A stretch of DNA of 64,000 nucleotides from Bacillota bacterium (lineage in GTDB: Bacteria > Bacillota > SHA-98 > Ch115), in contig JABLXA010000001.1 of NCBI GenBank assembly GCA_013178415.1, positions 33,445 to 97,444 of the forward strand. The letters run 5' to 3'. Both the position numbers and the translations under genes were made by a program. The notes beneath the pieces were generated by a model. It searched no databases, was not told where the DNA came from, and was given only the letters and a program-made list of their open reading frames with translations. This document shows, piece after piece, positions 18,060 to 38,751 of this stretch. Position 1 is the stretch's first letter; each line of letters opens with the position of its first letter.

Positions 18060-18127
18060 AAGTGTTAAGTTATTGGAGCAAGTGGCCCTTTTCTCTGCCA
18101 CTTGCTCCTCTATGAGGAGACTTCAAG

Positions 18128-19111: not shown

Positions 19112-19125
19112 TGAGGGGAAAGAAG

Positions 19126-20277: not shown

Positions 20278-20316
20278 CTACGAAAAGGCGATGAAAAAGG
20301 AAACGGATGGGAGAGT

Positions 20317-22375: not shown

Positions 22376-22467
22376 GATCCAAGAAAGGGATCTGAACCCT
22401 GTTCCCATAAAGTAAATTAGGATCCGAATTCACACCTCATGTTAGGTTAAAAGGAGGGAACTAGAAA

Positions 22468-24405
22468 ATGAGAGTATTTATCAGACCGGTTCTAACGATC
22501 GTATTAGTGCTTATTGTAACCATCTCGCTTGGAGTCGGCGTGGCCGCCGCTGCCACTTATAGGCAGGCGCCCATGTTTGATGAATTGGTTAAGGCAGGAA
22601 AACTCCCATCAGTGGAGAAGCGCCTCCCCGTTCCTTCAGACATATACGTCGTGAAGCCGGTGGAGGAGATCGGCCAGTATGGCGGCACCTGGAGGATGGT
22701 GGATACGGGGCCGGGAATGGGCCAGTGGTTGATGGCCAACGCCGTGGAACCGCTGATCCGCTGGAGGCCGGACCTCAAGGGTTACCAGGCAGGTTTGGCC
22801 AAGTCCTGGGAATATAGCGACGATGGTAAGACCTGCACCATCCACCTCCGCAAGGGAGTCAAATGGTCCGACGGCCAGCCGTTTACAGCGGATGATATAA
22901 TGTTCTGGTGGGAGGACCTTATACTGAACAAGGATTATCCCGAGGACCCCCCGAGGTGGGCCTGGAAGGGCGGGAAGCTGATGACGGTTGAGAAGGTGGA
23001 TGACTATACTGTCCGGTTCAAATTCGCCCAACCGTACTACACCTTCCATGCCGCCCTGGCTCAGGGTTATTGGGAAAACGTAGGCTACCTTGCCCCAAAG
23101 CACTATCTGAAGCAGTTCCACCCCAAATACAATTCCAAGGTTAAAGATTACCAGAAGCTTCGGGAGATAAGGACCAACCCCCACCTGAATCCTGCCTACC
23201 CCTGCCTTTATCCCTGGAGGACCGTTTCCTGGGACGCAGCAAAGGGGATACTGGTAGCCGAGCGGAACCCTTATTACTGGAAGGTGGATACGAAGGGGAA
23301 CCAGCTTCCTTACATCGATAAGGTCACGGTGACCATAGTCCAGGACCCCAAGTTGATACCCCTGAAGGCTATATCCGGGGAGCTTGATTGCCAGGTGAGG
23401 GGATTCGAATTCAGGGATATCTCCCTCTTAACTCAAAACCAGACTAAGGGCGATTACAGGGTCATCCGGTGGGAGTATGGGGATGGCGGAGCCCCCATGA
23501 TCTTTATAAACTGGGATGTTACGGACAAGAACCTCAGGCCCGTATTCCGCAACCAGAAGTTCCGGATCGCCCTGTCGCTGGCCATCAACCGCAAGCGCAT
23601 AAACCAGATCGTTTTCCAGGGATTTGGTAACATCCAGAACGCCACCATGTCCAAGTACCTAATACACTACAACCACCCCGACGGCCCAAAGCTCCATCAG
23701 GAGTGGATGAAAGCGTATGCGGATTATGACCCGGAGAGGGCGAAGAAGCTTCTGGACGAGGCAGGCCTTAAAGATGTAAATAACGACGGCTACCGGGAGC
23801 TTCCCAACGGTGAGCCCCTGCACCTGCTATTCGATGTGGGCGCTACAGACCTCCAGTCCATAGACGCCTGTCAGCTTATAGCTGAGGACTGGAAGGCCGT
23901 CGGCATCAAGGCATCTGTGAACGCAGTATCGGGAGAACTCTGGGCCTCCCGGAGCATGACGGGTAAATTCCATCTCCAGGTGTTCGGCTACGGCTCTGAG
24001 GTGGACCTCACCACATACCCTGATAATGTATTCCCCGTCGGTAACACCAGATTCCACCCGCTTACAGGACTCTGGCAGCAGACGGGAGGTAAAGAGGGCG
24101 AGGAGCCGACCGGGGTCATGAGGAAGCTCCTGGATCTTTACGAAAAGGCAATAGGGACCAAGGATGAGATCGAACGGAACGGCCTGGTGTTGGAAGCCAT
24201 AAAGATCCACATCGAGGAAGGGCCGTTCATATACGCCCCTGTCGCAGACCTCCCTGCGCCGATAGTCGTGAAAAATAACTTCAGGAACGTCCCGGGCATC
24301 GGGGTTGCGCCTAACGGGATAGAATACAGGCCGATACTGGGTCCCTGGGCTCCCGGGTTCCCCGGAACGGCCGAGCCTTCCCAGTTCTTCATCAAGAAGT
24401 CCTAG
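22468..24405 (+). CDS. ABC transporter substrate-binding protein, family 5, paralog 2.
   Basis: 645 aa with a signal peptide. Shares long identical blocks with paralog 1 (KAGKLPxVEKRLPV, DIYVVKPVEE, GGTWRMVDT). Confidence 0.85.
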   Translation: MRVFIRPVLTIVLVLIVTISLGVGVAAAATYRQAPMFDELVKAGKLPSVEKRLPVPSDIYVVKPVEEIGQYGGTWRMVDTGPGMGQWLMANAVEPLIRWRPDLKGYQAGLAKSWEYSDDGKTCTIHLRKGVKWSDGQPFTADDIMFWWEDLILNKDYPEDPPRWAWKGGKLMTVEKVDDYTVRFKFAQPYYTFHAALAQGYWENVGYLAPKHYLKQFHPKYNSKVKDYQKLREIRTNPHLNPAYPCLYPWRTVSWDAAKGILVAERNPYYWKVDTKGNQLPYIDKVTVTIVQDPKLIPLKAISGELDCQVRGFEFRDISLLTQNQTKGDYRVIRWEYGDGGAPMIFINWDVTDKNLRPVFRNQKFRIALSLAINRKRINQIVFQGFGNIQNATMSKYLIHYNHPDGPKLHQEWMKAYADYDPERAKKLLDEAGLKDVNNDGYRELPNGEPLHLLFDVGATDLQSIDACQLIAEDWKAVGIKASVNAVSGELWASRSMTGKFHLQVFGYGSEVDLTTYPDNVFPVGNTRFHPLTGLWQQTGGKEGEEPTGVMRKLLDLYEKAIGTKDEIERNGLVLEAIKIHIEEGPFIYAPVADLPAPIVVKNNFRNVPGIGVAPNGIEYRPILGPWAPGFPGTAEPSQFFIKKS

Positions 24406-24595: not shown

Positions 24596-25660
24596 GTGGG
24601 GATGACATCGCAGGAGCGTTTTATGCGGATGTTCCAGCACCGGGAAGCGGATAGGGTTCCAATAATAGACTCCCCCTGGAGGTCCACCATTGAACGCTGG
24701 CACAGAGAGGGAATGCCAGAGGGGATGAGTTTTGTAGACTACTTCGACCTCGATAGGGTTGCGCATATCCATGTCGACAACAGTCCCCGCTATGAGGTTA
24801 CCATCCTGGAGGAAACGGAGGGATATGTAATATCCACCACGGCCTGGGGCGCTACGCTGAAACAATGGAGGCATGCGGACTCAACCCCAGAATTCCTGGA
24901 CTTCAAGGTCACAAGCATGGATAGATGGCTCGAGGCTAAGGAGCGGATGACGCCGACCCCGGACAGGATCCCCTGGGATTACCTCAGGGAGAACTACCCG
25001 AGATGGCGCAAGGAAGGGTACTGGATCCAGGCGCAGCTGTGGTTCGGCTTTGATGTAACCCACTCGTGGACGGTCGGGACCGAGCGGCTCCTTATAGCCC
25101 TGATCGAGAATCCGGAATGGTGCGTGGATATGTTCAATCATTTCCTCGATGTGGACCTGGCGCTCCTGGATATGGTCTGGAACGCAGGATATGAGTTCGA
25201 CTGTATATCGTGGCCCGATGACATGGGCTATAAGAATAACCAGTTTTTCTCGGTAAAGCTCTACCGGGAACTCCTGAAGCCCATTCATAAGAGAGCCGCG
25301 GACTGGGCCCATGCCAGAGGGGTGAAGGTACACCTGCATTCCTGTGGGGACATCAGGCCTTTTATCCCCGAACTTATTGAGATCGGCATAGACGCCCTGA
25401 ACCCGCTCGAGGTAAAGGCGGGGATGGATCCTATCGAGATCAAGAGAAAATACGGAAATGACCTGGTGTTACACGGTGGTATCAATGCCGTGCTCTGGGA
25501 TAAACCCGAAGCCATTGAGGCGGAGATGAGGAATGTCATACCCGTTGTCAAGGAATCCGGGGGGTATATCTTCTCCTCGGACCATTCCGTGCCTTCCACC
25601 GTGAGCCTCGAAGACTTCAGGCGCATCGTAGAGCTGGCAAAGGAGCTGGGAAAGTATTGA
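24596..25660 (+). CDS. Uroporphyrinogen decarboxylase (URO-D) family protein, MtaA/CmuA-like.
   Basis: 354 aa with the URO-D fold pattern (DSPW...DDMGYKNNQFFS...HSCG...GGY). Confidence 0.7.
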   Translation: MGMTSQERFMRMFQHREADRVPIIDSPWRSTIERWHREGMPEGMSFVDYFDLDRVAHIHVDNSPRYEVTILEETEGYVISTTAWGATLKQWRHADSTPEFLDFKVTSMDRWLEAKERMTPTPDRIPWDYLRENYPRWRKEGYWIQAQLWFGFDVTHSWTVGTERLLIALIENPEWCVDMFNHFLDVDLALLDMVWNAGYEFDCISWPDDMGYKNNQFFSVKLYRELLKPIHKRAADWAHARGVKVHLHSCGDIRPFIPELIEIGIDALNPLEVKAGMDPIEIKRKYGNDLVLHGGINAVLWDKPEAIEAEMRNVIPVVKESGGYIFSSDHSVPSTVSLEDFRRIVELAKELGKY

Positions 25661-25792
25661 GACCGGAGGTGGGGTTCACTGTCTCCGGCTGGGGACCCTT
25701 ACCGGAGAGCCAATCCCCCTTGTGAGCCTTGGGAAATTGGCTTTGCGTCATCGCCGATCTTTCCCATCCTTGTCCGTGTGGCTCTTCAGGTT

Positions 25793-26347
25793 TCAAGGGC
25801 CCACGTTTTGCTCTAGAGCGCACAGGTATACCGATGAGGATGCGCCTAAGGCTTTAAACATCTTAGCGGGAAACAGCGGAGATTCGGCCAGCGCTCGGGT
25901 GCCGTTGAGCATTATTATCACAATGATTGGATCAAACGAATCGAGAATCATACGCGCTGTGGGCCGCATCGAGGTCCTCTTGCCCGGGATCGGAAGCACC
26001 ACGTGCGCCAAACCCTCCAGATGCTCAGGCTTCTTCACATATATCGGGCCAACGAACTCCGGCTCCTTTATTGCCTTGAACTGAAGCTCAATAGATATCT
26101 GCTCCTTATACTCCCGGAGTACCCTCTCTGCCGGGAACTCGTTTGTGTCCTGTATATTGGTTACCAGAACAAAACACGAGGCCCTCAGCTTTGCCTGCGC
26201 ATATGCTTCTTCATTCAGAGCACCTATTTGTGCTTTCACTCTGTAGACCGTCTTCGTCGGAGGGGCTTCGCCTTTTCTGGCGTTCCCGGCCTCTAACGCT
26301 TCAGAATGATCTCCCCGGGCGAACGTTTGCGCTGCTTCGGGTCCCAC
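25793..26347 (-). pseudogene. C-terminal fragment of an IS4/IS1634-superfamily DDE transposase (IS remnant).
   Basis: Carries REYKEQISIELQFKAIKEPEFVGPIYVKKPEHLEGLAHV, the conserved YxxRxxIExxF(K)xxK tail of IS4-superfamily transposases. Only about 180 aa; the N-terminus and catalytic core are absent. Confidence 0.5.
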
Positions 26348-26636
26348 GCCGCCAGGCTGTCAATGTTCTTCGGAATCCCCAACTCTCTTACGATACACGC
26401 AACCAAAGCACTCGCGCCTGCCCGAGAAGCCCTCGACAGTACTCTCGCCTCCCATTGCGACTATACATCAATCACAGTGGAAATACAAGTCAATTATCGC
26501 CATTTATCGACCACATAGACATGTCATAATCTCTGTCATCCTGCCTCTAAGAGCAGGAAGGATCGGATTTATCAAACTTATGAAGGAAATCTATAAACTT
26601 TATAGAATTATAGAATTGACGCACGAATGTTATATA

Positions 26637-26652
26637 TTGCACAAATGTGCAA
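26637..26652. promoter_or_regulatory. 16-bp palindrome TTGCACAAATGTGCAA (candidate operator) next to a tandem TATAGAAT-TATAGAAT and a TTGACG box, about 270 nt upstream of the sugar binding-protein gene.
   Basis: Perfect 7-bp half-sites seen in the sequence. It lies in the promoter region of the second ABC locus. Confidence 0.3.
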
Positions 26653-26922
26653 CGACTATTGGCTGTAGGTATAGTCTAGCGTTACCACGTGTAGGTCCAG
26701 AAAGGTGAGAAATATCATTATTGTCTAATCATAAAACGTAACAGGAACTTGAAGGAGGTGGCCATTGGAACAAGACAATCGTGGGATAAATTGAATGCAA
26801 CCAAAAGGAAATCCACGCATGAACGGGTGGAAGTAAACCAGGAGGAGAAGAACGACAGAGTTAAAGTGCAGAAAGGAGTTATGGCTTTCCGAACAACTTC
26901 TACGATGTAAGGAGGAGATTTT

Positions 26923-28461
26923 ATGTCCAAAAGGGGCCTTGCAAAACTGGGTTATCTGTTGTTGCTGGCTATCTTCGTGCTCGGTTCGGTCCTGTCAGTT
27001 CAGGCGAAAGAATGGAAGGGCAAGATTCAGATTAGCATATCTATGGGTGCGTCAAAACCGGTATGGGAAGCTGTAGTGAAGGCCTATATGGCCAAGAACC
27101 CGGGTGTTACAGTCATACTAGACGATAAAGAAGGAGGCAGCGCTTATACTGATTGGCTCAGCAATCAGCTGGCCGGCGGACATATCACAGCTGACATTGT
27201 GATTAATAATACGGTCGCCCAGTACTACGCTGAAGGTAAATTCGTGGATTTTGGAGAGTATCTGATACAAAAGAACCCTTACGCCGGTAACAAGCGGTGG
27301 ATGGACACGATGAATCCTGCCGCCTACCGCTCAAATGGGCCCAACGAGGAAATATTCAACCTGAATGTCGATTCCGTCCAGATCCTATGGTTTTACAATA
27401 AGGACATATTTAAAAAGATTGGTGTGGAGCCGCCAAAAGACTTTGATGAGCTAGTGGGGATATCCAAGAAGATTAAGGCCGCGGGGTATATACCTATAGC
27501 CCTTGCCGGAGATGCGCAAAGCTTTTGGGAGATGACCGTGGGCTGGTTGTTCAGAATATACCACGATCAATTCTGGCGAGACCACGAGCCCCTCGTAGCC
27601 GTTCGGAAGGGCGATTGGAACTACGACCCGGAAAGGGATGGTACCTGGAAGTTTGATCCCAGCAAGATCGATAACGACCTCCCCACCAAGATCAAGTTTA
27701 ACCCCATCAGGGTAGCCAAGCTTCTTAAGGAAGGCAAGATCGGCCCTGATTCCGATAAGTACCGGGCGATGTACAGGAATTTCGCTAGGTTGATTCCGGA
27801 GTATGTGCAGCCAGGGTTCTTTGGCACCAGTGTATCGCAGGCCATGCAGTACTTCATTCGTGGCGAAGCTGCCATGTGGGTCGACGGCGGATGGTTTGGC
27901 GCGGCTTTCGATAGATACATGAAAGATGCGCCCAGGAAGTTCGAACTCGGTTACTTCTGGAGCCCGCCCATGACCGATAAGGAGGTAGCTGTAAAGTACA
28001 CCCGCAGCCTGGGTGGCCCGAACGGGTTTATCGGGGTGATAAACAAGTCCAAGGAACAGAATGATTTGAACATGGATTTCATGATGTTCTTCAGTTCGCC
28101 TGAGGGGCAGTCGATCCGGTATCAGGCGATGATGGAGAACAACCAATCGCCAGCTGGGCCGTCGCTTGTCTACAACGTCAAAATGCCGGGCAAATGGGCC
28201 AGCATATTCAGCGGTATGGGATATCGAGGAGAATGTGACCTCAATCCCCTGGGTGCTTTCAACCGCGGGTTTAATGATGAGCAGGAGAGCGTCAGAGCTT
28301 GGGTAGATTACGCCCAGAGGTACTTCAAGGGTGAACTGACCGTTGAGAAGTTCTCGAAGATAATGCAGCAGGTTATGGTAGATGCCATACCTCGCTGGTT
28401 AAAGACCCGGGGTTACCGCCCCGACGCTCTGGACGACCCTAGCAGAGACCCAACGATGTAA
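26923..28461 (+). CDS. ABC transporter extracellular solute-binding protein, family 1 (sugar).
   Basis: Signal peptide MSKRGLAKLGYLLLLAIFVLGSVLSVQA; 512 aa with the SBP_bac_1 pattern. Confidence 0.8.
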   Translation: MSKRGLAKLGYLLLLAIFVLGSVLSVQAKEWKGKIQISISMGASKPVWEAVVKAYMAKNPGVTVILDDKEGGSAYTDWLSNQLAGGHITADIVINNTVAQYYAEGKFVDFGEYLIQKNPYAGNKRWMDTMNPAAYRSNGPNEEIFNLNVDSVQILWFYNKDIFKKIGVEPPKDFDELVGISKKIKAAGYIPIALAGDAQSFWEMTVGWLFRIYHDQFWRDHEPLVAVRKGDWNYDPERDGTWKFDPSKIDNDLPTKIKFNPIRVAKLLKEGKIGPDSDKYRAMYRNFARLIPEYVQPGFFGTSVSQAMQYFIRGEAAMWVDGGWFGAAFDRYMKDAPRKFELGYFWSPPMTDKEVAVKYTRSLGGPNGFIGVINKSKEQNDLNMDFMMFFSSPEGQSIRYQAMMENNQSPAGPSLVYNVKMPGKWASIFSGMGYRGECDLNPLGAFNRGFNDEQESVRAWVDYAQRYFKGELTVEKFSKIMQQVMVDAIPRWLKTRGYRPDALDDPSRDPTM

Positions 28462-28477
28462 TAATCGCAGCGACAGT

Positions 28478-30523
28478 GTGGTTAGCAGGTTAGCAGGGCG
28501 CCTCTTGACGGGGCCCCTGCTCTTTGTGGAAAGGGGGATGGAGATGCAATTGTTGCCGCGTCGCGCCTTGACTAAAAGGGAGCGCTTTGTGTCCTTTGCA
28601 GTCATTCTTGTTTTGATGTTTGCCGCCTTCTCTTATACCATAAGTCTAAGGAATGCGCTAGATGGATTGAAGCCTAAACGTGTTGTTGTTCCAGATGCGG
28701 TTACGACGATAGATTTTTCGCAGGACGGAGCATTGACATACCTGGGGCTCAGGGATAAGGGCGTTTTGGCTCTGGACGAGAATGATAGTGTGGCCTGGCA
28801 ATTCCCTATCAAGGGCAGAGTGCTCGACCTAAAGGCAGAGGGTGACCACATCTACGTGGGTGTGGATGATCGCAAGCTTTACATCCTTGACAGGCAAGGG
28901 CAGCTGGTCAACTCCATCAGGGCTTCATACAGACCTATATCCGTGGCGGGGAATGCCACCGCTAGGAGAGTTATAGTCAGTAGCTCCCTGTCGGCAATGA
29001 AAAACCGCCTGGAGCTTTTCGATTTCAATGGAGAGAAGTTGTTCAGCATAAACCTTTATGATACCGTTTTTGACGTATTTATGCTTCCGGGGGGAGAAGA
29101 GGCCATCTATGTAACCAGGGGAGCAGAGGTACATCGCATAAATGCGGCCGGTGAGAAGATAGCCAGCAACGGCCTGGAGTATTATCCTGTGGATTCGGCT
29201 TATAGCCCCTCTGAAAACATGCTGGTGGTTTCGGATGAGGGTAATAACGTGTATGCATTCACAGACGATATGGAGCTTCTCTGGAAGAAGAAACTTGACA
29301 GTAAGATCAACGCGGTGGACATTGATGGCCAGCATCGGCGGATTGTCGTTGCATCAGACGCCGGTTACCTCATTACACTCGGGCTGGACGGTAGTCTGGA
29401 CACTCAACTAAACTCCGCCGCCGGCATCAGGATGGTACGGGTTAACCAGGCTGCTGGCACACTGTATACTCTCAAAGACGACAGCGATCTGAGGCGATAC
29501 AGAGTCGAGGCGCTGACCGACTTCTCGCGTATGCAATATCTTATGGGGCGCATACGAGTCATCGACATCATTCTACTGGTTCTGATGGTGGTGACGGCAA
29601 TGAACCTCTCACCCAGGATCAGTAGTGCCGTATGGGGGAAGCTGGCCCGAGGTTTAAGGGTGCTGCGGAGAGCAAGGTTATCCTATATGCTCTTGCTGCC
29701 TACCATATTTCTTTTGCTCGCATTCAACTACTATCCTGCCGTATCCGGCCTGTTCATCGCCTTTACGGATTACAAGCCGGGAATATACATGCGGTGGGTA
29801 GGTTTGACCAATTTCATCAACATGCTCCATAACGAGTACTTCTGGGTAGGCGTGTGGAACATGGTGATTTTCCTGATCACCGACCTTATTAAAGTTCTGG
29901 TACCATCCATTTTATTCGCAGAGCTAATCCTGGCCATGCGGTCCAAAGCTGCCCAGTACTGGACCAGGGTGGCTCTGTACCTACCGGGTATCCTGCCCGG
30001 GATTGCCGGGTTGCTTATCTGGACAGACGGTATCCTGGGCATGAACGGAATCATCAACCAGTTTCTGCGGGCTGTAGGTCTGGGCAATCTAGCCACGCCC
30101 TGGCTGGGCAATTCAAAGACCGCCCTCGGTGCTTTAATATTTATTGGGTTTCCCTGGGTGGGGGCGTACATCATCTTTTACGGGGCCTTGATCAGCATCC
30201 CCAACAGCCTGTTTGAAGCCGCGAAGATAGATGGATGCAGCTGGTGGAAGAGGATCCTGACAATAGACGTTCCCCTGATCAGCCCACAGATTAAGTTCGT
30301 ATTTGTAACCAGCTTTATTGCTTCAGTCCAGAACTTCGGCCGGGTATATGTGACCACCATGGGTGGCCCGGGACACAGCACCTACATCCCCATACTAGAG
30401 CTCTTCTACAACATGTCCAAATTCACCAATTACGGTGAGGCAGCCGCCATGGGCCTGTTCCTCTTCATCGTTGTGTTCGGAGCAACGTTGATGAATTTGA
30501 GAATGAAGACTGTCAGCCAGTAG
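28478..30523 (+). CDS. Fusion protein, 681 aa: N-terminal TM anchor + ~330-aa beta-propeller-like extracytoplasmic domain + C-terminal MalF/UgpA-type ABC sugar permease.
   Basis: The C-terminal 300 aa are a BPD_transp_1 permease (EAA loop ...SLFEAAKIDGCSWWKRILTIDVPL). The N-terminal part has one TM (FVSFAVILVLMFAAF) followed by about 7 repeats of ~40 aa of the blade type (DHIYVGVDDRKLYILDRQGQLV, NMLVVSDEGNNVYAFTDD...). It is one continuous ORF. Confidence 0.7.
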   Translation: MVSRLAGRLLTGPLLFVERGMEMQLLPRRALTKRERFVSFAVILVLMFAAFSYTISLRNALDGLKPKRVVVPDAVTTIDFSQDGALTYLGLRDKGVLALDENDSVAWQFPIKGRVLDLKAEGDHIYVGVDDRKLYILDRQGQLVNSIRASYRPISVAGNATARRVIVSSSLSAMKNRLELFDFNGEKLFSINLYDTVFDVFMLPGGEEAIYVTRGAEVHRINAAGEKIASNGLEYYPVDSAYSPSENMLVVSDEGNNVYAFTDDMELLWKKKLDSKINAVDIDGQHRRIVVASDAGYLITLGLDGSLDTQLNSAAGIRMVRVNQAAGTLYTLKDDSDLRRYRVEALTDFSRMQYLMGRIRVIDIILLVLMVVTAMNLSPRISSAVWGKLARGLRVLRRARLSYMLLLPTIFLLLAFNYYPAVSGLFIAFTDYKPGIYMRWVGLTNFINMLHNEYFWVGVWNMVIFLITDLIKVLVPSILFAELILAMRSKAAQYWTRVALYLPGILPGIAGLLIWTDGILGMNGIINQFLRAVGLGNLATPWLGNSKTALGALIFIGFPWVGAYIIFYGALISIPNSLFEAAKIDGCSWWKRILTIDVPLISPQIKFVFVTSFIASVQNFGRVYVTTMGGPGHSTYIPILELFYNMSKFTNYGEAAAMGLFLFIVVFGATLMNLRMKTVSQ

Positions 30524-30545
30524 AAATTGAACAGGGGGGTCGCAA

Positions 30546-31424
30546 ATGCCTGATAAGGGTCTAGCGGTGTCGCGAGGATTAAACAAGGGAAAAGGTATAG
30601 ATGGTCCGGTGGCGCAGACTGCAGTCGCGGTTATCATGCTGGTCACGGTGTTTATCAATTTCCTGCCAATCATAATCACTATTCTGAGCTCGTTGAAAAC
30701 TAACTATGAAGCCCAGTTGGGCGTTTGGGTGTGGCCACGCACTCCCGTCTGGAGCAACTGGTTCTATGGGTTGAAGGGTATCACCAGGAACATGCTCAAT
30801 AGCATTTTCATATGCCTCGTATCCACTGGGGGAGTCGTTCTTCTCGGTTCCATTTCTGCCTATGTGTTTGTCCGGCACAATTTTCCCGGCAAGGAGGTCA
30901 TCTTTGCCGCCATTATCGCTTTGATGGTCGTCCCGGCGGTTTTGACTCTGACCCCGTCGTATCTCTTAATGATCAGACTGGGCATAAAGAATACCTGGTG
31001 GGCGTTGATTTTACCCTACATTGCCGGCGGTCAGGTCGGCGCTATATTTCTATTTCGCACTTTCCTCTCCCAGCAGCCGGAGGAGCTGTTTGAAGCTGCC
31101 AGGATCGACGGCGCCGGCGAGTTTACCATATACTGGAGAATTGCCATCCCGCTGGCGATCCCGGTGCTGTCAATACAGGCTCTGGGTTCTTTTGCAGCTT
31201 ATTATAACGACTATTTGTGGCCCATGCTGGTGATCGACGAGTCCAGTCTCCAAACGCTTATGCCGATTCTCCGGGCTCTAACCGCCCAGATTGCGGGTGT
31301 ATACGACGAGCAGGGGATCAGACACGCAATGTTTCTGCTGAGCGGCATCCCGCTGATCTTTACCACCGCCTTTGGTTTAAAGTACTTCATCAGTGGTGAG
31401 TTTGCATCTGGGTTGAAACTTTAG
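30546..31424 (+). CDS. ABC sugar permease, MalG/UgpE-like.
   Basis: 6 TM and an EAA loop (LFEAARIDGAGEFTIYWRIAIPL). Confidence 0.85.
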   Translation: MPDKGLAVSRGLNKGKGIDGPVAQTAVAVIMLVTVFINFLPIIITILSSLKTNYEAQLGVWVWPRTPVWSNWFYGLKGITRNMLNSIFICLVSTGGVVLLGSISAYVFVRHNFPGKEVIFAAIIALMVVPAVLTLTPSYLLMIRLGIKNTWWALILPYIAGGQVGAIFLFRTFLSQQPEELFEAARIDGAGEFTIYWRIAIPLAIPVLSIQALGSFAAYYNDYLWPMLVIDESSLQTLMPILRALTAQIAGVYDEQGIRHAMFLLSGIPLIFTTAFGLKYFISGEFASGLKL

Positions 31425-31448
31425 TCCCCGGAGGGACGGTGAAATACA

Positions 31449-32096
31449 TTGCGAGCCAGGCGCTGGCTGGAGTGGGTATTTATAAAGGAAGGATTTGTAA
31501 ACCTATTCTGGAATTTCCACTACGCGGTCATCCTGGGCATTATCACCCTGGTTTTGTTCTTGGGAGTAGTAACTATTGGGCCGGCCCTGCTCGCCCTGTG
31601 CAGCAGCATGAGGCTGGCTGCCGAGGGTAAGGCCGTGAGGGTGGGGCATTATCTGAGAGAGGTTAAGCGTCTGTTCATCCCCGGGATTGTGTTTTCGGGG
31701 ATTCTGGGCTTTGCCGCTGGCAGCCTGTACTCTAATCTCTACGTGCTGGCCAACACTGCGTCAGCAGGTTACCACGGGGTTGCCTACTTGGCTATCGCCC
31801 TTGTCACCGTTCTGCTCTTCTTTTCGATATACTACCCCTTTGTGGCATTGCGAGAGCCGCGGATTCTGCAGATCATTGTGAAATCGGTATTTTATACTGC
31901 TGAACACTTCTGGGACACCATCATACACATTAGTTTGCTATACCTTTTGTGGCGGATTCTGGCCATTTCACCACTGGTAGCGGCCATAGTCTTTTTGCCG
32001 CTGGCTACTTATGCCTTGAATCGATTTATCGTAGCCAACAATCAGGTTATCGACGAACTGGACGAGAAATCTGCTCGAGAAACCGGCCATGGTTAA
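31449..32096 (+). CDS. YesL/DUF624-like integral membrane protein.
   Basis: 215 aa, multi-TM, adjacent to the sugar ABC permeases as yesL is in Bacillus. Confidence 0.45.
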   Translation: MRARRWLEWVFIKEGFVNLFWNFHYAVILGIITLVLFLGVVTIGPALLALCSSMRLAAEGKAVRVGHYLREVKRLFIPGIVFSGILGFAAGSLYSNLYVLANTASAGYHGVAYLAIALVTVLLFFSIYYPFVALREPRILQIIVKSVFYTAEHFWDTIIHISLLYLLWRILAISPLVAAIVFLPLATYALNRFIVANNQVIDELDEKSARETGHG

Positions 32097-32208
32097 CCCG
32101 AGCAGCTTTTCCGCCATCGGAGGCCCGGCTGGAGATGCCTACCGGCGGACTAAGACATGGCTGAGGCGACTTTACGAGCAGATTCGTAAGGGTGAGTCAT
32201 CAAACTGA

Positions 32209-35130
32209 ATGGGGGAGTTTAGAATGGAGATCATCAAGCGTGAGGGCGTGTGGTGCCTCTTTGACAAGACTGTACCCCTGATTCTAACTGATGAGAAACA
32301 GCTGGAGATCATCCTGAAAGACCCGGCTCAGCCCCTGTTTGCGGAGGAAGAGAGGGGGTACTCCGGCGAAAGGAGGGGGCTTTACGACCCTGAAACTTCC
32401 CTCATCGACATAGTGAAACGAGGCCAGGAGCAGGGGGCACAAAGGCTGGAAGTATCCTACGACTTTTTCTTCGGCGGAAAGAAGCGGACAAATTACCCCG
32501 ACAGCGGGATCACAGTCGCTGCTTTGAAGGTCATCCATGACCTTGCAGAAAAGCATGGCCTGGACTTTTCTGCCAGCATCATATCTCCACTGGATATAGG
32601 GGGAGGCTATGCCCAGAAGCATGAACCCACTGGTTTCACTTACCAGTACCAGGAAGGTTTGATAGACAAAGAAGGCAACTACTCTGTGGACATGGTGTAC
32701 CAGAAACAGTGGTGCAACAACAAGGGACCCATAGAGCTGAAACTCGATAAGGTGCTGGTATACGCTTTCCGTGAGGAAAGGCTGGGTAATACCAGCTTCT
32801 TTTACGTGAATCCCGACGAAATCGTGGATATCTCGTCTACAGCCCATTGCCAGGTGGACGAAGCGTCGGTGACCATCACCGGGGCCGGGTACGGATACGG
32901 AAAGATGAGGGTGTTTGGCCTTTGGGAAGATCCGGAGCGGATTCCGGGGTTTAACCGGTGCCTTGCCGTGGCGGTATACAAGACTCCCGAACTGGATTAT
33001 TTCAGCCCGCAGGCCTTGCCATATATGAAGAGCATAATCGACCTGCACAAAGATGCCGGCATCGACTACCAGGGGTTTTACTCCGATGAGATGCACATCC
33101 AGTTTGATTGGGACCTGAGCACTCATTTCGGCCACGAGGAGATCAACACCCGGTACCTTACTGGCAGCCTCATGGGCGAGTATGCAGACAGGTACGGCGA
33201 GCAATACCGTAACTTCGCCAGGTATCTCATCTATTTCTCATACCACCAGCACGATTTCCTAGGCGGTGAGGAGGGCGGTTTGCCGGCACAGCACGTGTTC
33301 GGCAAGGACGAGAAGAGCATTTACCAAACCTGGTTATTCCGCAAACGGTATTTCGAGCTGCTTCAAAGGCGTGTGGTAGATCTGTGCAATGCGGCGAAAG
33401 ATTACGCTGAGGGGCTGTTTGGTGGGCCGATTATGACCAGGGCGCACGCTACATGGCAGGAATCCCCGACCTGCGACCGGTTTTACGACCGTTCCATCTT
33501 TACAGAACATGAGGGCGGGCGTCCTTCCCGATACGAATACACCCCTTCTTATGTTTGGTCATCCTCCATCAGGGAGAATATCTCTGCCTGCTACGACTAT
33601 TTTCTCTGGAATGATTTCTTAACCGGCGCTGGAACCGACCACCCTGAAGGCGGCAATATTGATAGGAACTACTACGCCCAGGCCCTGGCCTGCAGCTTTG
33701 GAGTTTTGAACAAATTCCCCTATGCCTACTGCGGTAGCTGGGGAAGCCCGAAGGAGGTTTTGCGGCGCCTGCAAAACATAGGGATCAGTTACGGCACGAC
33801 GGACTGGCGGGTGGAACTGGGCCACAGTCTGGTGCAGGGCCTATCCCACAGGCTCACCGATGTATTGGCCCTTTATCCCCTGGAGTTGAATTACGTGGAA
33901 GAGCGGTTCGGCAGCTGGATGGTACAGTACGGTTACTGCAACTACATAACAGAAGGCAAGCTGTTAGAGAATGCGACAGTGACCGGGCGGGGGACTCTTC
34001 TGGTCAAGGGAAGAGAGTACCGAGCTCTCGTAGTCCTGTTTGAACCGTTTGTGCGGCGAGAAACTCTGGAGTTGATCAGAGACTTCCTCTCCAGGGGCGG
34101 CAAGGTGGTCTGGACATCGATCTATCCCCTGCTGGCAGAAGACGGGGAAGACATCCTGCCGGCGTGGAAAGAACTCTTCGGGATAAGAGATGTAGAGTCC
34201 GCTATCAGGGGGACAGCGATGCCCGGCGAAACCATCGCTTTCCGGGGATTACTGGCAGACGTCAGGCCCATGCAGGTTCTTACCGACATGTTGCCAGATC
34301 GGGTTTACCCCTGTGTGCCGGGTGAAAAGGCCACAGTCGTGGCGGTTGCCAGAGACAAGGTGTTGGGTGCGGCCCGTGAGCATGCCGGAGGTGGGCTGGC
34401 CCTTTATCTCGGGTTCAGACCGCGGGACGACCAGTCCTGTTCCACCGGTCAGGACATTGACACCTTGTTTTCAGTCCTCAAATCCGTGGGGGCTTACGAC
34501 CCGGATGGACTGGAGGTCAAGTCACGTCCGGCCGGCAGCCGTTACAATATGAACCGGTTTCCCAACGGCGCGGTTTCCATCGCCAACCACTACCGCACCT
34601 TTTACGAAAAATGGAGCGGTCGGTTTTTCCGGGATGAAAAGGAGGATGCTGCCGCTTTGGAGGGTCGCGAGTTGCCCCCGGTAGAGATCAACCTTCGGGA
34701 GATGCTGATACTCGGCCACACCATTACCTATACCGGTACGGACGTTTTGACCTACAACCTTGGCCCGGCCGGGAGGTTGCTGGGGTTTGCCGGTTCTAAT
34801 ACTAAAGGGATTACTGTGGATGGGAAGAAGTACGAGTTTGTACAGGAACCGGCGGACTTGGTGTGGACTGTCATACCCGAAGAACAGCTGGCTGCCGGTA
34901 TCAAGAGCCTGTTCCTCGCCCGAGTAGATAGGCCGACCAGATTAACGCTGCCCCTATCTGGGTTGCCCAATGCGTCCCGGGAGACAGCTCCGAGCCTGCA
35001 GGTAAGGGTGTGCGACGACTCCCTGTTTACCGCGGGTAGGGCAGTGCCGTACGAATGGGATGGAGAGAATCTGGCGGTGAACATATCCGAAGAAGAAGCG
35101 GGTAAGTGGATAGCGGTAATCTTGGTATGA
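32209..35130 (+). CDS. Large hypothetical cytoplasmic protein (973 aa), no recognisable family. A candidate novel carbohydrate-active enzyme.
   Basis: Long ORF co-directional with the ABC locus, no signal peptide, plausible amino-acid composition. Rich in conserved-looking Trp/Tyr/acidic blocks (FDWDLSTHFGHEEINTRY, YFLWNDFLTGAGTDHPEGG). Confidence 0.6.
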   Translation: MGEFRMEIIKREGVWCLFDKTVPLILTDEKQLEIILKDPAQPLFAEEERGYSGERRGLYDPETSLIDIVKRGQEQGAQRLEVSYDFFFGGKKRTNYPDSGITVAALKVIHDLAEKHGLDFSASIISPLDIGGGYAQKHEPTGFTYQYQEGLIDKEGNYSVDMVYQKQWCNNKGPIELKLDKVLVYAFREERLGNTSFFYVNPDEIVDISSTAHCQVDEASVTITGAGYGYGKMRVFGLWEDPERIPGFNRCLAVAVYKTPELDYFSPQALPYMKSIIDLHKDAGIDYQGFYSDEMHIQFDWDLSTHFGHEEINTRYLTGSLMGEYADRYGEQYRNFARYLIYFSYHQHDFLGGEEGGLPAQHVFGKDEKSIYQTWLFRKRYFELLQRRVVDLCNAAKDYAEGLFGGPIMTRAHATWQESPTCDRFYDRSIFTEHEGGRPSRYEYTPSYVWSSSIRENISACYDYFLWNDFLTGAGTDHPEGGNIDRNYYAQALACSFGVLNKFPYAYCGSWGSPKEVLRRLQNIGISYGTTDWRVELGHSLVQGLSHRLTDVLALYPLELNYVEERFGSWMVQYGYCNYITEGKLLENATVTGRGTLLVKGREYRALVVLFEPFVRRETLELIRDFLSRGGKVVWTSIYPLLAEDGEDILPAWKELFGIRDVESAIRGTAMPGETIAFRGLLADVRPMQVLTDMLPDRVYPCVPGEKATVVAVARDKVLGAAREHAGGGLALYLGFRPRDDQSCSTGQDIDTLFSVLKSVGAYDPDGLEVKSRPAGSRYNMNRFPNGAVSIANHYRTFYEKWSGRFFRDEKEDAAALEGRELPPVEINLREMLILGHTITYTGTDVLTYNLGPAGRLLGFAGSNTKGITVDGKKYEFVQEPADLVWTVIPEEQLAAGIKSLFLARVDRPTRLTLPLSGLPNASRETAPSLQVRVCDDSLFTAGRAVPYEWDGENLAVNISEEEAGKWIAVILV

Positions 35131-35348
35131 AAACAAAACATGCCTTTGAGTATTTTGGCTTACCGGACACTAGACGAAGCCGCGCCCTAAGACTTCACCA
35201 TTGGTCACCCGGGCTCCGAAGCCTTCACAACGCCGGCTGCTCCAGAAGCATTCAGAAGCCGTGTTTGTTGGCTCCACCGGTAGCGTGTCCTGTCCCCACA
35301 GGCATTTTTCAGTCCATCGGTGGGCCAGCTTGCTGAATTGGAGGTGTT

Positions 35349-36314
35349 ATGACGGCTATGAGTGGACGTGTAGATTCGATAACTGTCAGTAAGGATAAGA
35401 TCTGCTTTGCTGGTGGGTACGGCAAAAATGGCGAGGTGCGCGGGGCCTGGTTCAAGGTCTATGCTTTTGAGCCCTGCGCAGCCGTCCCGCACAATATAGA
35501 TCCTTTTCCCGCTCCCATTGCGACCATACCGGCTGAGTGTAGGAACGGCAGCTTTCAAGTCGCAGTAGACCGGTTCAGGGACAAAAAAGACGGGATATAT
35601 TGCAGGTACAAACTTGCAGTGAGCGACTCCGGGGATTCGGGCCTTAGCCTTCTGTCCGGGGTTTGCTATCCCACGGAATTGGACGGTATAGCGTTGTACA
35701 ACTACGCTTACCCTGCTGCCCGGACAATCAAGGGATTGCAGGTGAGGATGATTGATGATGCCATAGCGCTCCGAACCGCCTATTATGCAGCCAGGAAGAA
35801 GTATTCGGAAGCCAGGGTCTACATATCCCTGGACCATTTTTGGACCCTTTTCTACCAGGATAACCCGCTGCGATGTTATCCCGGGAAAAAGGTATTGGAC
35901 ATCTTGAACGGCCTGGCGCTTCAGGAGGGCAATTTCGACTGGTCGGTTGCCTATCACCCGTATCCTGAAGATCTCTCCCGCCCCGATTTCTGGAACGATA
36001 AAACGGCCGTTCATTCTTTTGATGCCGGCCGCATCACCTTTTGTCTGGCCTACCGGAAGGTTGAAAAGACGCCGGGTATTGAATCCTTCATTCTCCACGC
36101 CCACGTAGATAATCGGGATGAGTTCGGTTTGAACCTGGGGTTGTGGCGGAGAGATAAGGAAAGCGACGATCCCAGCGCCCCCGGCAGTCCCAAGCCCATT
36201 TATTACATTTTCAAAGATATCGACGGACCCAAAGGAGAGGAAGCCTGTAGATTCGCCAGAGAGGTTGTCGGTGAGGAGAAATGGGCCGAGATTCTCGGTG
36301 AGGATCAGGAATGA
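35349..36314 (+). CDS. Hypothetical protein (321 aa), unknown family. The strand choice is uncertain: a 388-aa antisense ORF overlaps it.
   Basis: Co-directional with the flanking genes. Its composition is more protein-like than the G/P/R-rich antisense translation. Confidence 0.45.
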   Translation: MTAMSGRVDSITVSKDKICFAGGYGKNGEVRGAWFKVYAFEPCAAVPHNIDPFPAPIATIPAECRNGSFQVAVDRFRDKKDGIYCRYKLAVSDSGDSGLSLLSGVCYPTELDGIALYNYAYPAARTIKGLQVRMIDDAIALRTAYYAARKKYSEARVYISLDHFWTLFYQDNPLRCYPGKKVLDILNGLALQEGNFDWSVAYHPYPEDLSRPDFWNDKTAVHSFDAGRITFCLAYRKVEKTPGIESFILHAHVDNRDEFGLNLGLWRRDKESDDPSAPGSPKPIYYIFKDIDGPKGEEACRFAREVVGEEKWAEILGEDQE

Positions 36315-36399
36315 GAATTGGTGGTTGATGTCAATCAAGCTTGGGTGCCATAAGTGGGCCTTTGCAAACATTTAATAGCCAAGGGAGGTTTGTTTAGCC

Positions 36400-38445
36400 A
36401 TGCCGCTGTACCGTGATGCTGTTTACGGTTGTGAAACGGTTACCCTGGAGAACCCGTTTCTGAGGCTGGATGTTCACAAGCGCAGCAGCGGGTGGGGATG
36501 GGGAGAGCTATTTGTGCCCGATGATGAGGGCAAGCTGACCAAATTCATGGCGGTTCTTGAGCATCTGGCTGAGGCGGAAATGGCCGGAGTACCCCATCCG
36601 CTCCGCCTCGAGGCGAGTAACTACAAACTGACTGAGGATGCGGGAAATAAGACTCTTTCATTTGAGGTGGAATTGCAGGAAGTGGCTCCACCCAGCGAGT
36701 ACCTTGCCGGCAAGTCTGCTTTGCGGGGGGGTGTCAAGCTCACGGTTCCCGCCAAAGAGCCAGTAATATACTATGAAATGTCCTTGAAGAGTGAGTGCCT
36801 TCTTCGTCTCCACTACATCCGGGGGCCCTGGCTCAGGGTTGGCGCCTGCAGCTTCGGCATAGACCGCCACGACGCTATATTTCCGGGTGTGGAGTGGGTA
36901 ATAGGTGATGAGTGGTCTAGCGGGACGGACTGGTTTGAAAACCCCGAGGCCCTGCGGGTTACCCCGCACCCTCACAAGGTCGCCATACCAATCATGGCCA
37001 TAAGCCAGGGCGGGACGGGTGTTGGCCTTTCCTGGAACCCGGAGCAAGCTGTCCTTTCCCCCTGGACACGCATTCGCGGTCCTCAGCCCGTTTTTGCCAC
37101 TCCGAACTTTGTAGATCGGAGGAGCCACCATCTCCTGGGATTGATGTTCCCCAGTGCCCGATGGGGTATGAAAGAAAATGACCTGAGGGCCGACCCTCCC
37201 ATCCTGGTAGGAAAGGGAGTAACCTTCTCTCTCAATGCGCAGATCTCTGTTGTCGAGGGGACGAGTCTAGACGTAGTTGTGGACTGGGTGCAGCGCAACG
37301 GCATGCCCGACCCCGGTAAACCCCGGTATGGATGGGAGGATGCCCTGAATCGGATAGCCCGGGCTTACAACACCAACCTGTGGATAGAGGGTAAGGGCTG
37401 GGGTTTCCGGGGCCAGGGGAATACCAGCGTACCTGACTTCGTTTTGTACTACATTGAGCACGGTTCTGACAGTGAAGTGAAGGCCGGTCTTCGAGACAAG
37501 GTTGACTGGTGTAAGAAGCACCAGATTGACCCGCATAAGGTGGAAGCGGGCCTGCACGGCCACCCGATACTTTCCCGGCCGCTGTGGTGGGTCATGAGTC
37601 GTCCCCAGGACTCTATCGAGGTCGGCAATCGTCTTCTGGAAATGCAGATTTCGGAAGGCGATTTCCCTTACGCCCCGAATGGAATACACGGGACCGTGCT
37701 CAAGGACTGGGCCGAAACCTGGCGTCCACTGGGGCAGGAAGGCGATTCGGCCGTAGACCTCTGCGCCACTGCGGCGGCAGCTCTAATTCTCGCCGGCAAG
37801 AATACGGGTGAAGGGAGATTCCTCGATGCAGCGAGGAAGACCCTGGACTTTGCCCTGGGGTTTGAACGGCCTGAAGGTGGGGACTGGTGGGAGACCCCGC
37901 TGAAGAGTCCCAATCTGCTGGCTGCTGGGCACGCGGCCATCGCCTATTATCTGGGCTATAAGGAGTTCGGTAAGGACGAATACCTGAAGAAAGCCATCCG
38001 CTGGATACGCAGCCTTATCCCGTTTACGCACCTTTGGGAACCGGCAGACATCCCTATGATGTACAACACGAAGCCGTGTTTCTGCAGTACGTGCTGGTTC
38101 CTTAGCGATTGGGTATCCAAACACGTGCAGTGGGAAGTCCTGCAGGTTTTCGCCATGTCCTCTAAGCTGGGCATTGATTGGGCGCAAATCGATCCCGATA
38201 TTGATTGGAACCAGTTCCAGAAGGGGGTCACGACTGCCGTGCTCCGCTGGATGATCGATCACGAAGATGCCGAGTGGATGTACCGCTCGGAGTTTCCCGC
38301 TGAACTGCTCAGCAACGGGACATGGGACACCCTTTTCTGCGATACCTTTGATCCGGTCAACAATACCTACGGCGGCGGGCCTATCATGCCTGAGGTCATT
38401 GCAGACAATATTCTCTTGATATTGCAGCGGGGAAAAGGGAAATAG
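36400..38445 (+). CDS. Large hypothetical cytoplasmic protein (681 aa). An N-terminal beta-rich region plus a C-terminal helical-repeat region (possibly an alpha/alpha toroid). A candidate novel glycoside hydrolase or lyase.
   Basis: No signal peptide. The C-terminal segment DLCATAAAALILAGKNTGEGRFLDAARKTLDFAL...LLAAGHAAIAYYLGY resembles six-hairpin glycosidase helices. No family could be assigned. Confidence 0.6.
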   Translation: MPLYRDAVYGCETVTLENPFLRLDVHKRSSGWGWGELFVPDDEGKLTKFMAVLEHLAEAEMAGVPHPLRLEASNYKLTEDAGNKTLSFEVELQEVAPPSEYLAGKSALRGGVKLTVPAKEPVIYYEMSLKSECLLRLHYIRGPWLRVGACSFGIDRHDAIFPGVEWVIGDEWSSGTDWFENPEALRVTPHPHKVAIPIMAISQGGTGVGLSWNPEQAVLSPWTRIRGPQPVFATPNFVDRRSHHLLGLMFPSARWGMKENDLRADPPILVGKGVTFSLNAQISVVEGTSLDVVVDWVQRNGMPDPGKPRYGWEDALNRIARAYNTNLWIEGKGWGFRGQGNTSVPDFVLYYIEHGSDSEVKAGLRDKVDWCKKHQIDPHKVEAGLHGHPILSRPLWWVMSRPQDSIEVGNRLLEMQISEGDFPYAPNGIHGTVLKDWAETWRPLGQEGDSAVDLCATAAAALILAGKNTGEGRFLDAARKTLDFALGFERPEGGDWWETPLKSPNLLAAGHAAIAYYLGYKEFGKDEYLKKAIRWIRSLIPFTHLWEPADIPMMYNTKPCFCSTCWFLSDWVSKHVQWEVLQVFAMSSKLGIDWAQIDPDIDWNQFQKGVTTAVLRWMIDHEDAEWMYRSEFPAELLSNGTWDTLFCDTFDPVNNTYGGGPIMPEVIADNILLILQRGKGK

Positions 38446-38751
38446 TGGAGTATAGCATAACTCCATACTGTTTGATTGCTGACAGTCACACGTGGAGATA
38501 GCTTTCGCTGGAGCAGGAGTTGGCACTCGCATGTCGTGGGTCCCACTCCGTGCTTTGGATTGCCACTGGGAGTTGTTCCATGGGAGTTGTTTAAGTGGTT
38601 TCCAATCTGGCGAGATTGCTCGGAAACCCTTGCAGTCACCATATATTGTGGCCATACTTAGACGCTGCCCCAATATAGCCCTTTCGAGAGAGTTTCCGAG
38701 CATATTCCTAGATAGTATACGTTCAATGAAAGCATATACAAATTTTCCCTT

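Follow-up and report, generated by a model that had tools for sequence, protein, structure and literature searches.

A propeller-permease fusion in a sugar-importer operon

The window analysed here is a stretch of 64,000 nucleotides from a Bacillota bacterium (GTDB lineage Bacteria; Bacillota; SHA-98; Ch115), corresponding to positions 33,445 to 97,444 of the forward strand of contig JABLXA010000001.1 (NCBI GenBank assembly GCA_013178415.1). It contains the operon of a sugar importer of the ATP-binding cassette (ABC) class, in which one of the two permease genes encodes, within a single open reading frame (ORF), a beta-propeller followed by a complete permease core. An earlier note on this DNA had described this protein as a membrane-anchored extracytoplasmic propeller placed N-terminal to a complete sugar permease. 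The analysis supports that description, with the difference that the propeller is held between two transmembrane (TM) helices and not on a single anchor. This propeller-permease architecture is real and recurrent in dozens of bacterial species, and it appears to be undescribed.

Read from GTG 28478, the fusion gene gives its longest product, an uninterrupted protein of 681 aa (Table 1). An AAGGGGG ribosome-binding site stands immediately 5′ of ATG 28538 and ATG 28544, and the 100% identical protein at NCBI (NPV78699.1, 'ABC transporter permease subunit [Firmicutes bacterium]') is annotated with 659 aa, a length that implies a start at 28544. The true start of the gene therefore probably lies further in, at ATG 28544, as chosen by NCBI, or at ATG 28538. 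The residue numbers used below for the features of the fusion are counted from ATG 28538 (661 aa). Logan and ENA assembly contigs carry the same fusion sequence, called in this case as 672 aa.

It might be argued that the fusion is an assembly or frameshift artefact uniting two separate genes, but this is scarcely credible, and nothing was found in its favour. The same ORF is present in the NCBI metagenome-assembled genome (MAG), in the Logan contigs and in the ENA contigs, and about 50 other genomes, belonging to three phyla, contain orthologous fusions in a single ORF. Identical ORFs in separate assemblies, together with this recurrence elsewhere, exclude a misassembly or a frameshift, and confirm the earlier description of one uninterrupted 681-aa ORF as a genuine fusion; the search for homologous fusions in other genomes that the earlier note had proposed has thus been carried out. 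In addition, the second added TM helix and the basic linker that follows it give the fusion a coherent topology. Split copies do exist, one divided by a frameshift (locus L043) and one interrupted (L024), but they are limited to these two and are clearly broken versions of intact neighbours.

Membrane topology and permease core

The fusion is predicted to contain eight TM helices (1 + 1 + 6). Its N-terminus, with 5 Lys/Arg in residues 1-17, would remain in the cytoplasm; TM1 leads outward, the propeller lies outside the cell, TM2 brings the chain back, and a basic linker on the inner side precedes the six helices of the core. Under the positive-inside rule, the basic character of the linker puts it inside the cell and the propeller outside, and the same layout is required because type I importer cores begin on the cytoplasmic side. 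The earlier note had assumed a single TM helix ahead of the permease core, which is not borne out, as both hydropathy and the AlphaFold2 (AF2) model reveal a second helix (residues 339-357) after the propeller; with one TM helix, the propeller and six TM helices, the core would be inverted in the membrane. In the AF2 model, the helix bearing TM2 begins right where the propeller ends (residue 323), and almost every homologue has this helix at the corresponding position. Hydropathy, the distribution of charges and the AF2 model are concordant on TM1, propeller, TM2, basic linker and six-TM core.

The core itself is recognized by the Pfam family BPD_transp_1 (35.2 bits versus a cut-off of 26.4, residues 487-671 of the 681-aa reading). 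The NCBIfam model of UgpA (NF007852) covers the whole six-TM core, aligning protein residues 395-676 with profile positions 7-287 of 295, at a score of 75.6 bits that is far under its equivalog cut-off of 335; judged from these profiles, the core is UgpA-like in layout and is not a UgpA orthologue. Nor, by the same kind of comparison, is the fusion a MalF orthologue: the MalF model (NF008232) reaches 40.7 bits against a cut-off of 392, and pairs residues 437-679 with MalF 261-517 only. Between the third- and second-last TM helices stands the ATPase-coupling EAA loop, EAAKIDGCSWWKRILTIDVPLIS, which follows the pattern EAA-x3-G-x9-I-x-LP, and in which D565, G566 and P579 are invariant in the 13 homologues that can be aligned end to end (alignment A1). 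Of the complete MalF/UgpA-type six-TM permease with an EAA loop that had been proposed for this gene, the complete core and the EAA loop thus stand, as does the resemblance to UgpA and LplB, and the MalF type has to be dropped.

The propeller and its mounting

The structure prediction called for in the earlier note was run with AF2, and the N-terminal region does form a propeller. Predicted local distance difference test (pLDDT) values are 88-96 for residues 20-350 and only about 45-70 for the permease half; the low values of the latter reflect a shallow alignment of 13 sequences, and no conclusion on domain packing was drawn from the model. Residues 47-322 contain 28 strands, arranged in a closed ring as seven 4-stranded blades of about 40 aa each, which agrees with the seven or so blade-like repeats of about 40 aa read from the sequence beforehand. 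In comparisons against the PDB, Foldseek places 7-bladed WD40 propellers best (e.g., 7big_A, target TM-score 0.83), the prokaryotic WD40 domain 5yzv likewise reaching a target TM-score of 0.83. Thus, the domain has the fold of a WD40-type 7-bladed beta-propeller, and nearly all of its closest structural neighbours are non-enzymatic WD40 proteins of the scaffold kind.

At the level of sequence families the signal is fainter. In the Pfam scan, the N-terminal half has weak sub-threshold propeller matches only (Beta-prop_ACSF4, PQQ_2, EML), the WD40 repeat PF00400 is not matched by the window protein, and no substrate-binding protein (SBP) domain was found in it. PF00400 is passed by remoter members of the family, with 66.5 bits in P0042 and 76.5 bits in L057 (cut-off 27). 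The PQQ/YVTN-like character first attributed to the propeller is not upheld: PQQ_2 remains just below its cut-off (26.4 versus 27.6) and is not passed by any single stretch, and the blades number seven, not eight.

In the model, a continuous helix (residues 13-44) runs into the first strand of the domain and a second one (323-357) continues from its last strand, with linkers of only 0-2 residues, and the model hence shows the propeller rigidly attached in the loop between the two added helices. The N-terminal strand completes blade 7 and, with the standard WD40 strand order, both chain ends exit at the 'bottom' face. We infer that this bottom face would rest on the membrane beside the translocation pore, with the 'top' face turned outward.

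Distribution of the fusion

A word-indexed search returned 15 full-length homologues (647-702 aa, 29-100% identity), 13 of which make up alignment A1, and full-length homologues are found in about 50 species genomes at 29-57% identity. The 15 from the word-indexed search include a protein of the cultured Paenibacillus cymbidii R196 (WP_167859122.1, locus L007) and one of a Clostridiales MAG that is labelled 'PQQ-binding-like beta-propeller repeat protein'. An exhaustive phmmer search with the N-terminal 381 aa, in which representatives were clustered at 50% identity, added 19 more, of 649-683 aa, with a TM-loop-TM segment and a multi-TM C-terminus; both BPD_transp_1 and the propeller were present in 10 of the 10 representatives tested (about 650 aa).

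When one genome per species was scanned, 79 loci were collected, about 50 of which contain a single ORF of the TM-loop-TM-core layout. These are mostly from Chloroflexota (Anaerolineae, Caldilineaceae, Thermomicrobiales, Sphaerobacteraceae and Aggregatilineales), the rest coming from Bacillota and two Spirochaetes. The fusion had been regarded as unusual, and it is indeed uncommon, but it is not unique, as it forms a clade that extends over these three phyla. In public databases its members go under the names 'ABC transporter permease subunit', 'PQQ-binding-like beta-propeller repeat protein' and 'ABC-type sugar transport system permease subunit/outer membrane protein assembly factor BamB'. 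Full-text literature searches returned no description of propeller- or WD40-fused ABC permeases, nor of binding-domain fusions in carbohydrate importers. As a separate observation, the permease of locus L056 (10013-10864, Phototrophicaceae MAG) has a core 98.6% identical to that of L053 and is devoid of both the propeller module and an upstream binding-protein gene, reflecting either a recent deletion or an assembly problem.

Sister permeases with other domains in the same slot

Other permeases of the clade, whose cores are about 40% identical, also possess a TM-ectodomain-TM extension. In sisters from Chlamydiota, Victivallales, Verrucomicrobiota, Gemmatimonadota and Latescibacterota, the slot is occupied by a complete SBP_bac_1 domain (1e-25 to 1e-32 in L063, L068, L075 and L076), and no separate binding-protein gene was found near the loci of these SBP-fused permeases. 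Where the binding protein is covalently attached, the propeller and the separate gene are therefore both missing. No CUT1-type permease with a binding protein built into such a slot was found described in the literature. Since these sisters hold a whole SBP_bac_1 domain there without a separate binding-protein gene, the slot can let a receptor domain serve the pore.

Gut and rumen Clostridia (Scatosoma, Christensenellaceae and other MAGs) contribute a further form, in which the ectodomain takes up about 430-500 aa of a permease 730-806 aa long. The four of these ectodomains tested had no Pfam match. Profile-profile comparison with hhalign matches the clostridial ectodomain to the propeller of the window type with a probability of 98.4% (E 1e-14), and a match to YncE is obtained at 4e-5; at the profile level, this shows the clostridial ectodomain to be a divergent propeller with insertions. 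In a rough neighbour-joining tree of the cores, all slot-bearing forms fall into one clade, apart from the ordinary permeases of the same genomes, with the SBP-fused forms and three plain forms nested inside it. The tree, which is without support values, is suggestive of a single clade of slot-bearing permeases. Taken together, the sister permeases show that the permease N-terminus can host interchangeable outside domains.

Operon and neighbourhood

The operon runs co-directionally from 26923 to 38445 (Table 1). Upstream of the fusion lies the gene of the cognate binding protein, with an SBP_bac_1 domain, and downstream a second permease of the MalG/UgpE type, which has no propeller extension, as had been stated before and as the Pfam scan corroborates. 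From its domains and these operon partners, the fusion is assigned as transmembrane subunit 1 of a CUT1-type binding-protein-dependent oligosaccharide importer, along with the binding protein, permease 2 and the DUF624 protein. A MalK/MsmX-type ATPase is not among the window ORFs scanned, in which the ABC ATPases are only of the Opp type (20317-22375) or the exporter type (38752-42440). CUT1 systems of Firmicutes commonly share an ATPase encoded elsewhere, so that its absence from the window does not exclude CUT1 membership. Binding protein, fusion and permease 2 occur together in nearly all of the propeller loci, with the binding-protein gene usually immediately upstream and the gene of permease 2 downstream.

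Table 1. Coordinates of the fusion and its parts, of the other genes of the operon, and of the sister permeases (positions in the window, or within the locus named)
Feature	Position	Strand	Characteristics
Cognate substrate-binding protein, 512 aa	26923-28461	+	SBP_bac_1 8.8e-23, SBP_bac_8; Sec-type signal peptide (...SVLSVQA/KEW), mature from residue 29, no lipobox Cys
Propeller-permease fusion ORF	28478-30523	+	681 aa from GTG 28478 (longest reading), uninterrupted
TM1, signal-anchor helix, residues 17-35	28586-28642	+	Hydropathy peak 2.32; preceded by Lys/Arg-rich cytoplasmic N-terminus
Predicted extracytoplasmic 7-bladed WD40-like beta-propeller, residues 45-322	28670-29503	+	
TM2, residues 339-357	29552-29608	+	Hydropathy peak 2.28
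Cytoplasmic linker, residues 358-380	29609-29677	+	7 Lys/Arg, zero acidic residues
Six-TM type I ABC importer core, UgpA/LplB-like, residues 381-660	29678-30517	+	Pfam, NCBIfam, hydropathy
EAA loop (ATPase-coupling motif), residues 560-582	30215-30283	+	EAAKIDGCSWWKRILTIDVPLIS, read from sequence
Second permease, 292 aa, MalG/UgpE/GlcU-like, no extension	30546-31424	+	BPD_transp_1 7.9e-16; NCBIfam matches
DUF624 membrane protein, 215 aa, about 4 TM	31449-32096	+	Pfam DUF624 25.4 versus cut-off 24.2
973-aa cytoplasmic protein	32209-35130	+	Same operon direction; no signal peptide or TM
DUF5722 homologue, 321 aa	35349-36314	+	Pfam DUF5722 8.1e-48
681-aa cytoplasmic protein resembling carbohydrate-active enzymes	36400-38445	+	Beta-sandwich then (alpha/alpha)6 barrel; AF2 pLDDT 90, predicted template-modelling score (pTM) 0.92; no signal peptide
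SBP-fused sister permeases	L062; L063 8381-10861; L068 8378-10867; L073; L075 1505-4399; L076 8303-10861; L084		
Clostridial permeases with enlarged ectodomain	L059, L064, L065, L067, L069, L070, L074, L077, L079, L081, L083		

The DUF624 protein has homologues encoded directly after the second permease in L003, L007, L009 and L011, and further downstream in L002, and it may be an accessory subunit of the transporter. Neither Pfam and NCBIfam nor the sequences of the PDB gave a match to the 973-aa protein, whose homologues in L003, L008, L009, L019 and L025 measure 800-996 aa. Compared with full-length relatives in L001 and L003, the DUF5722 homologue has lost about 140 internal aa through an in-frame deletion, and in tblastn, residues 9-137 and 278-510 of the relative align in one frame; the window gene may thus be degenerate. 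A full-text search did not find the term DUF5722 in the literature. On the opposite strand, a 388-aa ORF (35205-36371) yielded no matches and is probably spurious, the plus-strand DUF5722 gene being the one encoded there.

The last gene of the operon encodes a 681-aa (alpha/alpha)6-barrel protein, for which the best Foldseek matches are glycoside hydrolase (GH) families GH94, GH116 and GH129-like, and polysaccharide lyase family PL26, at an E value of 4e-10 with TM-scores of only 0.22-0.28. Its family is large and well conserved and comprises 378 hits (Chloroflexota, Bacillota and a Bathyarchaeia MAG), no Pfam model exists for it, and every named member is a 'hypothetical protein'. Homologues follow the second permease in many Chloroflexota loci. 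Based on the model, the protein probably represents an undescribed family of carbohydrate-active enzymes. Like the 973-aa and DUF5722 proteins, it has no informative sequence match among solved structures. Other related loci add GH78 rhamnosidases, a GH99-like protein, a protein with a carbohydrate-binding module of family 9 (CBM9), and LacI or AraC regulators; in L002, the CBM9 protein (704 aa) is encoded beside the transporter. A promoter and terminator scan of 25600-38900 gave counts no higher than those of shuffled sequence.

Conservation and divergence of the propeller

In sets of both 13 and 51 sequences, the only invariant columns of the propeller are glycines (G121 and G205), and R112 is the sole near-invariant polar residue. 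The conserved positions correspond to a scaffold motif repeated in each blade, S.DG..G.RD..V..D..G..LW, and no conserved acidic or other candidate catalytic residue was found across the propeller family. The arginine at the WD40 'D-1' hot-spot position is kept in 82-96% of sequences in blades 1, 2 and 4, and in 65% in blade 3. No other component of the system evolves as fast as the propeller, whose mean p-distance of 0.69 exceeds those of the binding protein (0.51), permease 2 (0.46) and the core (0.41). A functional face conserved throughout the family was looked for and rejected (0.43 for the loops of the top face versus 0.50 for those of the bottom face), a slight excess on the top being seen in the Bacillota clade only. 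In this clade, YRP, SAMK, YY and N motifs are located in the D-A and B-C loops of blades 3-5, on the top face.

Candidate roles of the propeller

Our leading reading, which we put forward tentatively, is that the propeller would be a non-catalytic accessory on the receptor side of the importer, serving as a docking or retention platform for the binding protein. According to this proposal, the propeller would keep the binding protein, the product of a gene of its own, at the transporter entrance, as the MalF P2 loop does for MalE; the loaded binding protein would then deliver to the permease pair, a shared MsmX/MalK-type ATPase hydrolysing ATP would drive import, and the imported oligosaccharide would be degraded in the cytoplasm by the co-encoded 973-aa, DUF5722 and 681-aa (alpha/alpha)6-barrel proteins. 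Import for intracellular breakdown is suggested because the 973-aa and 681-aa proteins are cytoplasmic, having no signal peptide. A receptor-side accessory is favoured because a separate binding protein is always kept with the propeller, and a fused SBP accompanies the loss of both the propeller and the separate gene. Propeller divergence also tracks that of the binding protein slightly more closely than that of any other component; over all loci the Spearman coefficient is 0.90, versus 0.865 with its own core, and within Chloroflexota 0.85 versus 0.70, which would be weak evidence of a functional link.

Several observations weigh against such a docking platform. In the mirror-tree comparison, a correlation just as high (0.57 in all loci; 0.74 in Chloroflexota) links the binding protein to permease 2 once the core is controlled for, and the co-evolution signal was consequently rejected as not specific. 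The binding proteins of propeller loci display neither an extra domain nor a size difference with respect to their plain relatives in L054, L078 and L080. Given the low confidence of the permease half of the model, the placement of the domains relative to each other is not fixed. Nor does the top face, predicted to point outward, clearly look towards the place where a binding protein would dock on the pore. A lipobox is missing in the window binding protein and in about half of the binding proteins of propeller loci, and it was considered whether the propeller retains an otherwise unanchored binding protein; this argument was discarded, as a canonical lipobox is also absent from the two other binding proteins of the window and from those that serve ordinary transporters in these Chloroflexota genomes. 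The missing lipid anchor is thus a trait of the lineage and not peculiar to propeller loci.

The propeller could instead be a lectin-like module that binds glycans, catching oligo- or polysaccharide at the membrane surface and passing it to the binding protein or directly to the pore, a role that we consider somewhat unlikely, yet a close rival of docking; the two are indistinguishable on present evidence, and both are candidate roles only. Seven-bladed propeller lectins exist, and the rapid evolution of the domain would fit a different sugar at each locus, in line with associated enzymes that differ between loci (GH78, GH99-like, CBM9, DUF5722). The motifs conserved in the Bacillota clade lie on the outward top face and are rich in Tyr, Arg, Asn and Asp, the hot-spot arginines are retained in blades 1 to 4, and some relatives score above the cut-off of the lambda-carrageenase propeller family. 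These carrageenase matches are, however, unspecific, as they come together with dozens of generic WD40 families, and no known carbohydrate-binding or lectin family was matched in the Pfam scan. Moreover, family-wide the top-face loops are no more conserved than the bottom ones, and a separate binding protein is always kept. That the propeller acts as a hub or spacer for some other envelope partner (secreted glycanases, the DUF624 protein, cell wall or S-layer), touching neither binding protein nor sugar, and that it would thereby organise a surface complex for degradation and uptake or position the transporter, is a poor prospect. WD40-type propellers, to which the best structural matches belong, are typically scaffolds with multiple partners, the DUF624 protein is co-conserved in the loci of the Bacillota clade, and the CBM9 protein adjoins the transporter in L002. 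Nevertheless, the large enzymes co-encoded in the window, devoid of signal peptide and TM helices, cannot meet the propeller, no extracellular partner is conserved across loci, and DUF624 was not detected in most Chloroflexota loci.

An enzymatic role, which had been among the functions first suggested, is the least favoured of the functional readings: a glycoside hydrolase or lyase that trims the substrate right before uptake is very improbable. Propeller folds, 7-bladed ones included, serve several families of carbohydrate-active enzymes, and the locus is one of carbohydrate utilisation. The propeller, though, matches none of these enzyme families, its closest folds are nearly all non-enzymatic, and catalysis is disfavoured because only glycines are invariant and the conserved positions are those of the blade scaffold. 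From the pattern of conservation, we infer that the propeller is not an enzyme.

Returning to the receptor-side accessory, a bolder version of it can be formulated, which we regard as speculative and unlikely. The permeases with a TM-ectodomain-TM slot would constitute a clade of type I ABC sugar importers that has not been described before, each with a receptor-side module as an integral part, be it a propeller, its enlarged version or an entire binding protein. The propeller would then be obligatory in transport, either as a clamp that permanently holds the binding protein or as a second, covalent glycan receptor feeding long chains to the pore. If this were true, such importers would depart from the textbook scheme, in which the binding protein diffuses freely.

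Comparison with known systems and significance

The closest parallel is MalF of the E. coli maltose importer (MalFGK2-MalE). Like the fusion, MalF is a type I CUT1 subunit of eight TM helices, with two extra N-terminal ones and a large folded extracytoplasmic domain, and it is partnered by a shorter permease and a free-standing binding protein. The P2 loop of MalF docks MalE, and it is by analogy with it that the same role is proposed here for the propeller. The two proteins differ in the nature of the domain and in its insertion point: P2 is an Ig-like domain of about 180 aa between TM3 and TM4, whereas the fusion contains a 7-bladed propeller of about 280 aa between TM1 and TM2. They also differ in their cores, that of the fusion being UgpA/LplB-like, and the MalF model aligning with its C-terminal part only, far under cut-off.

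OpuA and GlnPQ likewise have an extracytoplasmic domain of the receptor side covalently attached to the transmembrane subunit. They belong to other importer families, however, and the domain fused in them is the binding domain itself, whereas the window fusion combines a propeller with a binding protein that is kept separate. In fusions of the OpuA and GlnPQ type, the binding domain is found at one end of the permease and not in a loop between two TM helices. YncE (7 blades) and BamB (8 blades, PQQ_2 family) are extracytoplasmic propellers too but, unlike the fusion, they stand alone as soluble or lipid-anchored proteins with no link to an ABC importer. Concerning the DUF624 protein, the maltose importer MusEFGK2I of Corynebacterium glutamicum includes an essential extra membrane subunit, MusI (PMC13008276). 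The likeness resides in a CUT1 importer with an additional small membrane protein in its operon, and the window DUF624 protein matches the MusI family weakly (MusI_fam, 33.4 bits versus a cut-off of 160). To our knowledge, the Mus permeases are without a propeller.

The MalF P2 loop is the only well-studied extracytoplasmic add-on to the permeases of type I ABC importers, and the interchangeable outside domains described above amount to a natural experiment on the coupling between substrate capture and translocation. The clade also marks glycan-uptake loci with uncharacterised enzymes (the 681-aa (alpha/alpha)6-barrel family, the 973-aa family and DUF5722), and such loci may yield new families of carbohydrate-active enzymes and a new substrate. 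Were the propeller merely a passive spacer, the finding would be an annotation curiosity only.

Other features of the window

Further upstream in the window, on the plus strand, an Opp-type ABC system (16140-24405) comprises two family 5 binding proteins (16140-18059 and 22468-24405), two permeases and two ATPases. The three binding proteins of the window are all without a canonical lipobox, two of them having Sec-type signals with Ala-rich sites and the third an atypical SGFC; missing lipoboxes are unusual for a Bacillota genome, and they may have a bearing on the envelope of this organism. A gene resembling those of GH127 beta-L-arabinofuranosidases is located at 9082-11016 on the minus strand. 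Finally, a uroporphyrinogen decarboxylase-like (URO-D) gene (24596-25660, plus strand) lies upstream of the importer operon, and weakly similar URO-D genes occur within 8 kb of the propeller-permease genes in the Chloroflexota loci L015, L026, L030, L045 and L047, the last of these with three copies.

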